In this document: positions 1 to 3,929 of the stretch, in pieces
Numbering within the stretch: the stretch's first letter is position 1
How the letters are laid out: each line of letters opens with the position of its first letter
Assembly (NCBI RefSeq): GCF_055900595.2
Contig: NZ_CM148325.1
DNA: 64,000 nucleotides
Reading direction: 5' to 3' (one strand)
Translations under genes and position numbers: made by a program
Notes under the pieces: generated by a model
The model's database searches: none
The model's input: only the letters and a program-made list of their open reading frames with translations
What the model was told of the DNA's origin: nothing

Positions 1-29
1 GCGACTCACACTGCTTCTGGCAGCCTGGT

Positions 30-602
30 TTAGTCATTATGACTGGCATGGATTAACGTCAACCCCGGATGATGCCACAAACTGGCTGGCGTGACGGTTT
101 TACGCTCCCACGGAATAGAACCTAAGAACCAGAATTTCCAGAAAGTGAGTTTTGCATTTGGATTGCTGTTTAGCAGTTCTCCAAACGTCTCTATTTCACC
201 CACCGGAATACATAACGCCTCTTTATAAATATCAAAAACGAATTTTGAACAGAACTGGCGGGAAGATTCGTATTTAAAACCGGTGTGGTAGAACTTATGC
301 AACCGGGCAGGGACCTTTTCGACAAGAGCAAGTTTCTGCTCTGCGGTTAAACCTCCTGCCAGGCGGCGAACACCGTAGCGTTGCTCGGTCGACCGTTCAA
401 TAAATCGTGACAAAGTTGTGATTGTGGAGAGCGGAACTCGACTCTCCGCAACCAGGTAATCATCACCGTCATGTCCGATGATTATCCCCACATGGTTGCT
501 CCAGCATTTCGAGGCTGCAGAGATTTGCCCAAACAGGCGAGCACCGATGCAGGTAAAAACAATATCACCGGTTTCATATTTAGCTGGGTAATTTATTTTC
601 AC
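30..602 (-). CDS. yebB: YebB-like protein (conserved core gene divergent from ruvA); apparent GTG start at 600-602
   Basis: 190-aa ORF; position divergent from ruvA matches core synteny; protein recalled as YebB-like from memory, not verified. Confidence 0.65.
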
Positions 603-695
603 TATATCAATCCATTATTTATATATAAAACAGCATCTATCTTTCGTGATGGTAAAGCATTAGCATTGTATTGTAATAATGACAAGGAATGTTTT

Positions 696-1520
696 ATGCG
701 GTTATTTATTAATGTGATAATGATAGTTTCGATCAGTCAATGCGTGAATGTATTTGCTCAAGATAATGTCATTCGCTATCCCTGGCGATATGGACGTATT
801 TCTTTAAATGAGAATAATGAGTTTGTGCCTCAAATTATTCATATGCGTGATGATATCTACGGCGTGGGTGAAGTTGGTGCAAGCCTTAACGATGCGAGAA
901 TGGCGCAAAGTGGTGTCACCGTGAGGCTTAGCGTTATACAGCAGGGGCAGGTGGTGAATGCTTTACTGGATTTCTACAATAGCAATAATCAACCTGCTTA
1001 TATATTTGAAGGCGGTTTATTGTCCTGCAATAAAGCCTTTGACATCACAACAAACAACATTGTCCTTGATGGGATGTGTGGAATTTATGATGGGGTCGAT
1101 GGCTGGCAAGTTATTCCTGCGGGTGAGCATTATAAAGAATCGTTTTCACTCACTCAGGCTTTTGAATTCTTGCCGGGAAAACATCATTATAAAATTAATG
1201 CCGGAGGTTTTATCATCAGAGTCGGGGATGATATTTTTGCAAGAGAAGATGCCGAAAGCATTCTTTTTGATTTGATTAACTGGCGATATGGCTATGTGCT
1301 AAAAAGTTATGAAAGGGTGTCAAAGGGGGATTTGATGGCAGGATATTATGCTCTGTATGAATACTCAGGCGCTGACATAATTGATGAGTATGATATTTAC
1401 TCAAACCAGGTGTCGATTGATCTTAATGGTGACGAGTTAGCACATACGGAGTCCTATCAGTGGCGAATTGATAGCGGAATGATCCCGGAAAAATTCAGCG
1501 TTCAGGGACTCGCTGAATGA
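696..1520 (+). CDS. hypothetical secreted protein, 274 aa, with predicted Sec signal peptide (MRLFINVIMIVSISQCVNVFA / QDNV)
   Basis: ATG at 696 preceded by AAGGA (684-688); N-terminus has n/h/c signal-peptide architecture with V at -3 and A at -1; the track ORF 471-1520 is trimmed because 471-602 overlaps yebB. Confidence 0.55.
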   Translation: MRLFINVIMIVSISQCVNVFAQDNVIRYPWRYGRISLNENNEFVPQIIHMRDDIYGVGEVGASLNDARMAQSGVTVRLSVIQQGQVVNALLDFYNSNNQPAYIFEGGLLSCNKAFDITTNNIVLDGMCGIYDGVDGWQVIPAGEHYKESFSLTQAFEFLPGKHHYKINAGGFIIRVGDDIFAREDAESILFDLINWRYGYVLKSYERVSKGDLMAGYYALYEYSGADIIDEYDIYSNQVSIDLNGDELAHTESYQWRIDSGMIPEKFSVQGLAE

Positions 1521-1557
1521 ATCGTCCTCTACCTGCTTGCCAGATACAGAGGCGCGG

Positions 1558-2127
1558 ATGAATTTATCAAGCGTATTCAATCAGCTTTTAATCTCATTAG
1601 CTCTTGCCGGGACGTTGATATCAAGCAGCTATCTCATGGAAGCTCACTACCCGCGTTTCAGGAAGCCAATTGCGTTCTTTTACTTCTTCTTAGCAATTTA
1701 TACCAGTTATGCTGCCGTTCTGGAGTATGAGTACCACCGCACTAGCTTGACTACGCTCGCAAAAGTTTCTTCGGTTCGTTATACCAGTAATTTTGAGCGT
1801 AGCGCCTCGCACTCCTGCAATTTACTGCGGGGAGGAAGGATTGATTGCACGGGGCTGTATGCCTATGACCTGACCTGGCAGATTGACGGTAAGACCTGGA
1901 ATTTGCATGTTGAGGACAAGCGTATAAAACCAGGATTCACCATGTGCGTGAAGGTTGTAAAAGATCGCCCCGCCATCGGGAAATCCTGTGAAAACGCGTT
2001 TTTCAATGTCAGCCCTTTGCCGATTCTGATAGCTATATGGGCAATCAGCGCATTTATATTTGCGGTCTTACTCCTTCACAGACTAAAAAAATGCCGCAAA
2101 TGGAAGCACGCCAGCAAGGGGCGTTGA
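1558..2127 (+). CDS. hypothetical membrane protein, 189 aa, about three hydrophobic segments and a Cys-containing loop of about 90 aa
   Basis: ATG at 1558 with AGAGG 5 nt upstream (alternative TTG at 1537); hydrophobic stretches LLISLALAGTLISS, IAFFYFFLAIYTSYAAVL, LPILIAIWAISAFIFAVLLL; 37 nt downstream of ORF1, same strand. Confidence 0.5.
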   Translation: MNLSSVFNQLLISLALAGTLISSSYLMEAHYPRFRKPIAFFYFFLAIYTSYAAVLEYEYHRTSLTTLAKVSSVRYTSNFERSASHSCNLLRGGRIDCTGLYAYDLTWQIDGKTWNLHVEDKRIKPGFTMCVKVVKDRPAIGKSCENAFFNVSPLPILIAIWAISAFIFAVLLLHRLKKCRKWKHASKGR

Positions 2128-2229
2128 AAAATTGGGCATTAGAAGTGTGATGTAAGGGGGATTCATACAGAATTTCTGATGCTGTGAGCAAAAGGATTAT
2201 CATTTCTGAAATGATTTAATATCATCCCT

Positions 2230-2249
2230 CGCTGGATATCTATCCAGCA
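2230..2249. promoter_or_regulatory. LexA (SOS) box of the ruvAB promoter, CTGGATATCTATCCAG
   Basis: CTG-N10-CAG palindrome at 2232-2247, 50 nt upstream of ruvA start. Confidence 0.8.
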
Positions 2250-2298
2250 TTTTTTTATCATACAGCATTATCTTTGATTCATTACGCAGGAGCGTCAT

Positions 2299-2910
2299 GT
2301 GATAGGCAGACTCAGAGGCATCATCATTGAAAAACAACCCCCACTGGTATTAATTGAAGTGGGCGGCGTAGGCTATGAAGTGCATATGCCGATGACCTGT
2401 TTTTATGAACTCCCTGAAGCGGGTCAGGAAGCGATCGTTTTCACCCACTTTGTGGTGCGTGAAGACGCGCAACTGCTGTACGGTTTTAACAATAAACAAG
2501 AGCGCACGTTGTTCAAAGAGTTGATCAAAACCAACGGCGTTGGGCCTAAACTGGCATTGGCAATCCTCTCCGGAATGTCAGCGCAGCAGTTCGTTAATGC
2601 CGTTGAGCGTGAAGAAGTGGGGGCGCTGGTGAAACTGCCGGGTATTGGCAAAAAAACCGCCGAACGCTTGATTGTCGAAATGAAAGACCGATTTAAAGGT
2701 TTACATGGCGATCTCTTTACGCCAGCTGCCGACCTGGTACTCACGTCACCTGCCAGCCCGGCGACCGATGATGCCGAACAGGAAGCGGTTGCCGCGCTGG
2801 TGGCGCTGGGCTATAAACCACAAGAAGCAAGCCGCATGGTGAGCAAAATCGCTCGCCCTGACGCCAGCAGTGAAACATTAATTCGCGAAGCCCTGCGCGC
2901 CGCGTTATGA
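2299..2910 (+). CDS. ruvA: Holliday junction branch migration complex subunit RuvA (GTG start)
   Basis: 203-aa [31 protein letters not shown]... recognised as RuvA. Confidence 0.97.
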
Positions 2911-2915
2911 GGTAA

Positions 2916-3929
<1,014 letters not shown>

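Follow-up and report, generated by a model that had tools for sequence, protein, structure and literature searches.

A truncated, probably relic allele of a DUF3592-like inner-membrane protein family in the yebB-ruvA gap of Escherichia coli

The immunity proteins of pore-forming colicins and the superinfection-exclusion proteins of phages are small accessory proteins of the inner membrane with a patchy distribution. Another, widespread class of membrane proteins is defined by DUF3592 (Pfam PF12158), in which an N-terminal membrane helix leads into a small β-barrel of about 100 residues that is followed by one or more C-terminal membrane helices. A DUF3592 gene of unclear role lies within an LXG/T7SS (type VII secretion system) toxin cluster of Streptococcus suis (PMC12482557), and the mycobacterial DUF3592 protein ML2271 is predicted to form a complex with the mannosyltransferase MptB (bioRxiv 10.64898/2026.07.15.738315). 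Here we describe ORF2, an open reading frame (ORF) in a 64,000-nucleotide stretch of an Escherichia coli chromosome (contig NZ_CM148325.1 of RefSeq assembly GCF_055900595.2), which we call the window and whose flanking core genes are 98 to 99% identical to those of complete E. coli genomes. We consider ORF2 to be a stand-alone accessory inner-membrane protein with a DUF3592-like periplasmic barrel, truncated, probably a relic, and independent of the gene that precedes it, ORF1. We hold this reading as a whole to be probable, with some reserve, and most of the reserve concerns the function of ORF2 and the question of whether it is a relic or active.

ORF2 shares the DUF3592 layout, since hydropathy, AlphaFold models, and the family alignment all give a membrane helix, a β-rich domain of about 100 residues, and a second membrane helix. 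Its family differs from DUF3592 in carrying four invariant Cys residues in the barrel, in having a family-specific cytoplasmic β-β-α-β-β domain with a basic tail in the full-length relatives, and, in the Escherichia clade, in possessing an extra N-terminal membrane helix. The resemblance to membrane immunity and exclusion proteins, which are likewise small, accessory, patchily distributed, and located in the inner membrane, is treated here as a lead only. Searches of Pfam, NCBIfam, PADLOC, and PHROGs by sequence or profile tied ORF2 to none of these families, it has no cognate toxin or phage context around it, and to our knowledge a disulfide-bonded periplasmic barrel of 97 residues, as predicted for ORF2, is not a feature of such proteins. 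The features of the gene are as follows.

1558..2127, + strand: ORF2 coding sequence, 189 aa plus stop; a short allele within a family of DUF3592-like membrane proteins (ORF list, coding sequence called by the Prokaryotic Genome Annotation Pipeline [PGAP] in locus L001, and homolog searches)
1548..1552, + strand: Shine-Dalgarno-like AGAGG, 5 nt before the ORF2 ATG (read from the sequence)
1582..1635, + strand: hydrophobic segment 1, about residues 9 to 26 (hydropathy, charge counts)
1669..1722, + strand: hydrophobic segment 2, about residues 38 to 55, the family-wide membrane helix leading into the β-domain (hydropathy, family alignment, model)
1723..2013, + strand: putative periplasmic β-rich domain, residues 56 to 152, a DUF3592-like small barrel (invariant Cys, homolog model, Foldseek)
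1816-1818, 1846-1848, 1945-1947, and 1987-1989, + strand: four conserved Cys codons
2014..2076, + strand: C-terminal membrane helix, residues 153 to 173 (LPILIAIWAIS...) (family alignment, hydropathy, model)
2077..2127, + strand: basic cytoplasmic tail HRLKKCRKWKHASKGR plus stop, with the deletion junction inside it

Kyte-Doolittle hydropathy in 19-residue windows peaked at residues 3 to 21 (1.68), 37 to 55 (1.69), and 154 to 173 (2.7), and all three hydrophobic segments are helical in AlphaFold models; both results agree with the initial annotation, which had read from the sequence two N-terminal hydrophobic segments and a C-terminal one followed by a basic tail. Segment 1 is an extra N-terminal membrane helix present only in the clade formed by Escherichia, L005, L006, and L014 (loci are numbered L and proteins P) and absent from the one-helix forms L002, L015, L016, and P0011 to P0014; it is modeled with lower confidence (predicted local distance difference test [pLDDT] score, 63 to 76). 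The C-terminal helix is both the most hydrophobic and the most conserved segment of ORF2. Segments 1 and 2 are joined by a cytoplasmic RFRK loop, the tail HRLKKCRKWKHASKGR contains eight K/R and no acidic residues, and the N-terminus, being devoid of K/R, would be periplasmic. This distribution of charge, on the RFRK loop and the tail and not at the N-terminus, would by the positive-inside rule place the Cys loop in the periplasm. The loop, estimated earlier at about 90 aa with four Cys, is slightly longer, at 97 aa, and contains Cys87, Cys97, Cys130, and Cys144, all invariant or nearly so across the family; a fifth residue, Cys179 in the tail, is not conserved. Conserved spacing suggests that the four would form disulfides in the pairs C87-C97 and C130-C144. 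The view of ORF2 as an inner-membrane protein with a Cys-containing extracytoplasmic domain is thus supported by the positive-inside charges, by the invariant Cys residues, and by pLDDT scores of 90 to 97 over the loop.

The AlphaFold model of the window protein itself, computed from a 6-sequence alignment, had a pLDDT of 61.8 and was left out of the fold search. The Foldseek query was therefore not the window protein but P0003, a full-length relative 71% identical to it, whose model from an 18-sequence alignment had a mean pLDDT of 86.6 (90 to 97 in the loop domain). This model consists of a long N-terminal helix, a β-domain of six or seven strands (with strands at residues 63 to 76, 100 to 109, 112 to 121, 128 to 134, and 137 to 143), a membrane helix at residues 154 to 185, and a cytoplasmic β-β-α-β-β domain. 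Searched against AFDB50, it returned 114 matches at an E value of ≤1e-3, led by the family's own relatives; among the top 50 of these 114, nearly all non-self matches were annotated as "DUF3592 domain-containing protein" (E values of 1e-5 to 3e-4, probability of 1.00). Three results weigh against the likeness: the template modeling scores (TM-scores) to the DUF3592 models were low, at 0.25 to 0.5, and owed in part to the helices; the Pfam DUF3592 hidden Markov model (HMM) matched none of 18 family members, each scanned by itself, at an E value of ≤0.1; and no solved structure matched. Since Foldseek matches DUF3592 and the HMM does not, ORF2 would be structurally related to DUF3592 and yet escape the Pfam HMM. 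On the evidence of the models, its fold class is DUF3592-like (membrane helix, small β-barrel, membrane helix); we do not file it as a member of PF12158, and it represents a new sequence family with the DUF3592 architecture.

The common fold class, together with the predicted MptB-ML2271 complex (bioRxiv 10.64898/2026.07.15.738315), would suit a role like the one proposed for ML2271, in which ORF2 would serve an enzyme of envelope biosynthesis as accessory subunit or scaffold. We regard this role as very improbable: the MptB-ML2271 complex is itself only predicted and comes from an unrelated envelope, no envelope enzyme gene is linked to ORF2 in any locus, and ORF2 is missing from more than 99% of E. 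coli, which excludes a part in any core pathway.

An exhaustive profile search of 1.84 billion protein representatives (E value of ≤1e-3) yielded 17 matches, 14 of which are true representatives of the ORF2 family; the accompanying genome scan used alignment A2, whose patterns may miss distant members. P0020, P0024, and P0026 were rejected as members: they are actinobacterial RCC1-repeat proteins, with 6 to 7 matched repeats each, that were drawn in by a local motif coincidence between CALLxGGxvDCWG and SCNLLRGGRIDCTG. In the window, the loop SHSCNLLRGGRIDCTG (positions 1807 to 1857, residues 84 to 100) resembles the RCC1-repeat consensus HTCALLxGGxvDCWG, which we judge to be a coincidence of a Cys-flanked hairpin. 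All named members belong to the Enterobacteriaceae (Escherichia, Superficieibacter, Pseudocitrobacter, Salmonella Namur, Klebsiella huaxiensis, and Kluyvera). The true members, without exception, share a membrane helix, a four-Cys domain of about 100 residues, a second membrane helix, and usually a C-terminal domain of about 65 residues with a basic tail. Homologs with as little as about 20% identity retain this architecture, and the ratio of nonsynonymous to synonymous substitution rates (dN/dS) among the full-length forms is 0.09 to 0.17.

Annotation resources added little to this picture. The window protein matched no Pfam family in hmmscan even at an E value of ≤10; neither the short nor the long forms had a significant match in Pfam, NCBIfam, PADLOC, or PHROGs (PADLOC gave 0 matches for both, and PHROGs gave only matches with E values of ≥0.05); and a sequence-profile search of the Protein Data Bank (PDB) with the family found nothing. 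No immunity, defense, or toxin family in the profile libraries matched either ORF1 or ORF2, and no literature was found with the protein accessions or PF12158 as search subjects. ORF2 is labeled "hypothetical protein" in all sources, including PGAP, and the exact window protein (P0030) is present on 119 public contigs labeled E. coli or Escherichia. PGAP picks the same start in E. coli R32_14_1F (L001), in L006 the ATG likewise follows an AGAGGG motif, and a TTG upstream, at position 1537, is an unlikely alternative start.

The uniform "hypothetical" label and a dN/dS near 1 within Escherichia could be taken to mean that ORF2 is a chance reading frame or an annotation artifact. This is scarcely credible, because homologs at 20 to 70% identity preserve the architecture and the four invariant Cys residues, the long forms show dN/dS values of 0.09 to 0.17, the fold prediction is confident, and the ribosome-binding site (RBS) is conserved; the conservation data effectively refute it already. 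Purifying selection and an architecture kept across divergent homologs are found in the long forms, while dN/dS is about 1.0 in the Escherichia short alleles. Given divergent homologs of common architecture and the low dN/dS of the full-length forms, ORF2 is more than a chance ORF; it is a real gene from a tiny family confined to the Enterobacteriaceae.

Compared with the long-form locus L006, the window allele carries a single clean in-frame deletion. The long-form relatives of ORF2 (P0003/L006, L014, L002, L015, L016, and P0011 to P0014), together with the more distant paralogs described below, range from 71% down to about 20% identity to it, lie for the most part in the same yebB-ruvA gap, and have a homologous helix-barrel-helix core with the same four Cys residues, but they retain the cytoplasmic domain that the window allele lacks. 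The DNA alignment of the window with L006 and L012 places the junction between positions 2106 and 2107; the missing 186 bp correspond to about 62 codons, that is, to the cytoplasmic α/β domain (about 65 residues) of the long forms, and 3′ of the deletion the alignment with the long-form L006 resumes through the former stop region and into the sequence beyond it. Among 13 Escherichia loci, the tail ends at 189 aa in 2, at 194 aa in 7, and at 181 aa (W182 stop) in 4. More distant long-form relatives, P0021, P0025, and P0027, are paralogs located between upp and purM. Such paralogs are single genes in Superficieibacter electus (L008, 6001 to 6774) and Pseudocitrobacter cyperus (L009, 6001 to 6564), with about 20 to 25% identity to ORF2 and the same four Cys; S. 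electus, with members at both upp-purM and yebB-ruvA, thus has two family members at two hot spots. In Enterobacteriaceae bacterium UBA5654 (L014, 4599 to 4904), yebB is cut to a 101-aa 3′ fragment adjoining a full-length ORF2 homolog that has two N-terminal membrane helices and the cytoplasmic domain.

The dN/dS of the remaining core is higher than that of its neighbors. Across the 13 Escherichia loci, the ORF2 core has accumulated 20 nonsynonymous and 6 synonymous changes (pairwise dN/dS, 1.00), compared with 22 and 21 for ORF1 (0.24) and 2 and 13 for ruvA (0.04); the difference is supported by Fisher tests against ORF1 (p=0.043) and ruvA (p=0.0002). The long-form relatives, in contrast to the Escherichia short alleles, are under purifying selection. 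Variable sites in ORF2 are scattered across the helices and the barrel, with two residues conserved throughout the family, E80 and V134, among them; they show no significant preference for weakly conserved columns (0.44 versus 0.51, p=0.14). As judged from these sequence comparisons, the pattern in Escherichia fits relaxed constraint after loss of the cytoplasmic module, and window ORF2 is probably under such relaxed constraint.

Several observations pull away from decay. The helix-barrel-helix core is open in 13 of 13 Escherichia loci, common full-length alleles occur on hundreds of public contigs, and the dN/dS of about 1 is based on just 26 changes and might instead be the mark of diversifying selection of the kind known from immunity or receptor proteins. 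In addition, the cytoplasmic domain has been lost independently in L005/P0004, P0022, and P0023 with the core kept, so that the core alone may be functional. For this last reason we keep diversifying selection as the main rival, in which the short ORF2 would be a working stand-alone protective factor, acting through its periplasmic barrel either as orphan immunity to a toxin that attacks the periplasm or membrane or in phage exclusion, and a dN/dS near 1 would mark an arms race. The high nonsynonymous rate would suit such a role, as would a core that stays open in all alleles through repeated C-terminal losses, the rarity and patchiness of the gene, an islet of one gene in the variable gaps that separate core genes at yebB-ruvA and upp-purM, and the DUF3592 gene, unclear in function, in the S. 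suis toxin cluster (PMC12482557). We nevertheless think it unlikely. Short and long forms alike lack a match in PADLOC, PHROG, Pfam, or NCBIfam, no copies occur in phages, plasmids, or viral contigs, no toxin gene lies nearby, and the nonsynonymous changes fall evenly over helices and barrel and hit family-conserved residues, which looks like relaxation rather than focused selection. A search for defense or exclusion signatures, as a PADLOC or PHROG match or presence in phage genomes, likewise found none.

The proposal of relaxed constraint can be set out as follows. ORF2 would be a stand-alone accessory inner-membrane protein of a small, unannotated Enterobacteriaceae family, whose loop of about 97 residues is predicted to form a small β-barrel between two membrane helices; the barrel would be displayed to the periplasm and most likely be locked by two disulfides. 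In full-length relatives, the last helix would join the barrel to a cytoplasmic β-β-α-β-β domain of about 65 residues with a basic tail, a layout suggestive of a one-protein transmembrane binder or transducer in which a periplasmic binding module is coupled to a cytoplasmic module. The window allele, with its extra N-terminal helix, has lost the cytoplasmic module through the 186-bp in-frame deletion and would keep only the periplasmic half, and within Escherichia it appears to gather amino acid changes at a neutral rate. Because the module is lost and the rate of amino acid change is neutral, relaxed constraint on a relic is the most probable state of window ORF2, which may at best be a periplasm-facing protein with a binding or blocking role.

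The initial annotation had also cast ORF2 as the likely partner of ORF1. The gene order in the window is yebB, ORF1, ORF2, the ruvA palindrome, ruvA, and then ruvB, znuB, znuC, znuA, and mepM, and the neighboring features are these.

30..602, - strand: yebB, a permuted papain-like enzyme, at the left border of the variable gap; divergent allele
696..1520, + strand: ORF1, neighboring secreted protein, 274 aa, with signal peptide MRLFINVIMIVSISQCVNVFA; no family match in any library
2232..2247, + strand: CTGGATATCTATCCAG, a CTG-N10-CAG palindrome upstream of ruvA that marks the right border (sequence and terminator-like scan)
2299-2910: ruvA

The spacing described in the initial annotation holds in the sequence: the ORF1 stop at 1518 to 1520 is followed after a 37-nt gap by the ORF2 ATG at 1558, which is preceded by the RBS AGAGG N5 ATG. 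Same-strand genes with this gap and an RBS, an operon-like arrangement seen in the window and in E. coli loci, make it probable that ORF1 and ORF2 are cotranscribed in the window. Co-occurrence across genomes is not consistent. The window and 12 E. coli loci have both genes, with ORF1 frameshifted in L011 and L018 and ORF2 open, and L002 has both in the same order (47% identity for ORF1 and 45% for ORF2) with a gap of 290 nt. In L003 and L004, however, ORF1 is intact (71% identity) and ORF2 is absent, leaving just 133 bp to ruvA, and in L007 the place of ORF2 after ORF1 (88% identity) is taken by an unrelated membrane protein of 228 aa. Conversely, at least five lineages have an intact ORF2 and no intact ORF1, the latter being reduced to remnants in L005 and L006 and absent from L014, L015, and L016. 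A truncated ORF1 allele of 212 aa is found on 79 contigs. Each gene thus stands alone in several loci, and the paralogs between upp and purM are solo as well; an intact ORF1 without ORF2, as in L003 and L004, is what the initial annotation itself had named as refuting its proposal.

In the two-gene module that was first proposed, ORF1 would be secreted and ORF2 would be its immunity, receptor, or anchor partner. The shared strand, 37-nt gap, and RBS speak for this module, as do the confinement of both orphan genes to the same few genera and a gene order common to Escherichia and the distant L002 scaffold. That order, kept at 47% and 45% identity, counts against full independence and makes an old, looser functional link possible. 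The module itself is a doubtful proposition, given that each gene is intact without the other in several lineages, that ORF1 is frameshifted or truncated in many E. coli strains that keep ORF2, that an unrelated membrane protein sits beside ORF1 in L007, that ORF2 paralogs are solo at another locus, and that ORF1 has no recognizable toxin or enzyme domain. For ORF1, Pfam, NCBIfam, and PADLOC gave no match, the only PHROG match had an E value of 0.15, and the best PDB profile matches had E values of ≥0.71, so that no toxin or enzyme domain was found in any of these libraries. ORF1 is a secreted protein under purifying selection (dN/dS, 0.24), and the two genes are independent co-residents of the yebB-ruvA gap; ORF2 is unlikely to serve ORF1 as a dedicated partner or as its immunity protein.

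Some further observations concern ORF1 and what accompanies it. In many E. coli genomes PGAP calls a 349-aa ORF1 that starts at the ATG at 471 and overlaps the 5′ end of yebB on the opposite strand; since the conserved form is 274 aa from the ATG at 696 and opens with the signal peptide, the longer call is probably an overextension. A degenerate partial copy of the ORF1 3′ end lies between ORF1 and the ORF2 homolog in L002 (6861 to 6990). The 228-aa protein of L007, an Escherichia-like contig (6499 to 7185), has multiple membrane segments and a Cys-rich C-terminal part and gave nothing significant in Pfam, NCBIfam, PADLOC, or PHROGs; in Superficieibacter electus (L016, 4546 to 4797), a fragment 31% identical to it separates yebB from the ORF2 homolog. 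It is a third alternative cargo of the yebB-ruvA gap.

The gap itself is rarely filled in this way. The ORF1-ORF2 islet was found in 19 of 5426 complete E. coli genomes (0.35%), always between yebB and ruvA; E. fergusonii and further Escherichia isolates, E. coli M863 among them, carry it as well. The same position is occupied by yobI in 5402 of the 5426 genomes (99.6%). In E. coli K-12, yobI likewise lies 5′ of the ruvA palindrome, and its product is also small and hydrophobic, but its 21-aa sequence, MYIFITHFFTEYVILKYLLPI, is unrelated, and it is mutually exclusive with the islet. The idea that yobI is a remnant of the ORF1 signal peptide or of ORF2 was rejected, as the sequences are unrelated. 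Literature on yobI, yebB, and ruvA was limited to promoter-catalogue papers.

The borders of the islet suggest how it is exchanged. The adjacent YebB is 86% identical at the amino acid level to the K-12 type, RuvA is 100% identical, and similarity to all E. coli resumes at about position 2222 of the window (megablast coverage, 5425 genomes). Among islet-bearing Escherichia loci, the adjacent yebB alleles are 97 to 99% identical; islet and yebB seem to be transferred together, in a single recombination block. No direct or inverted repeats flank the islet, positions 1 to 3000 of the window have no Rfam match, and ORF2 had no tblastn match in 50,697 phage records and none in plasmids or IMG/VR. 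With no flanking repeats and no phage, plasmid, or IMG/VR copies, a mobile-element origin was rejected. Together with the divergent yebB allele, these negative results indicate that the region probably behaves as an alternative allele swapped by homologous recombination and not as a mobile element. A gene for a PstS-family substrate-binding protein of about 500 aa lies between ruvC and yebB in L002 (3753 to 5246) and also upstream of yebB in L013 and L024; this insertion forms a second variable spot adjoining the first in some lineages, including some E. coli islet carriers.

The ruvA palindrome, kept in L002, L003, L005, and L010, is presumably the LexA/SOS box. At positions 2231 to 2258 of the window, this palindrome and a T-run also score as an intrinsic-terminator-like hairpin, directly downstream of the gap's cargo gene, which is ORF2 in the window and yobI in K-12. 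Being terminator-like and directly 3′ of the cargo gene, it might both terminate upstream transcription and regulate ruvAB.

For the genome of the window alone, ORF2 is probably a decaying accessory gene of limited consequence. The locus shows that alleles replace one another in the yebB-ruvA gap of Escherichia, with yobI in 99.6% and ORF1-ORF2 in 0.35% of genomes. It is a long shot that the full-length family represents a previously unrecognized single-protein transmembrane defense, immunity, or stress module of the Enterobacteriaceae, in which the disulfide-locked barrel would sense or capture an incoming ligand (a toxin, a phage protein, or a piece of the envelope, for example) and the last helix would signal to the new, basic cytoplasmic domain. 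Were this so, it would be a one-gene module residing in recombination hot spots, among them the gap that precedes the SOS-regulated ruvAB genes; in the window allele, nature would have supplied a deletion mutant that is "sensor-only"; and the family would offer the first mechanistic handle on the large DUF3592 fold class. As a sequence-orphan, predicted disulfide-bonded relative of that widespread class, ORF2 now has a testable description in place of "immunity partner," and its natural long and short forms in a genetically tractable host could help to assign a function to the DUF3592 fold.

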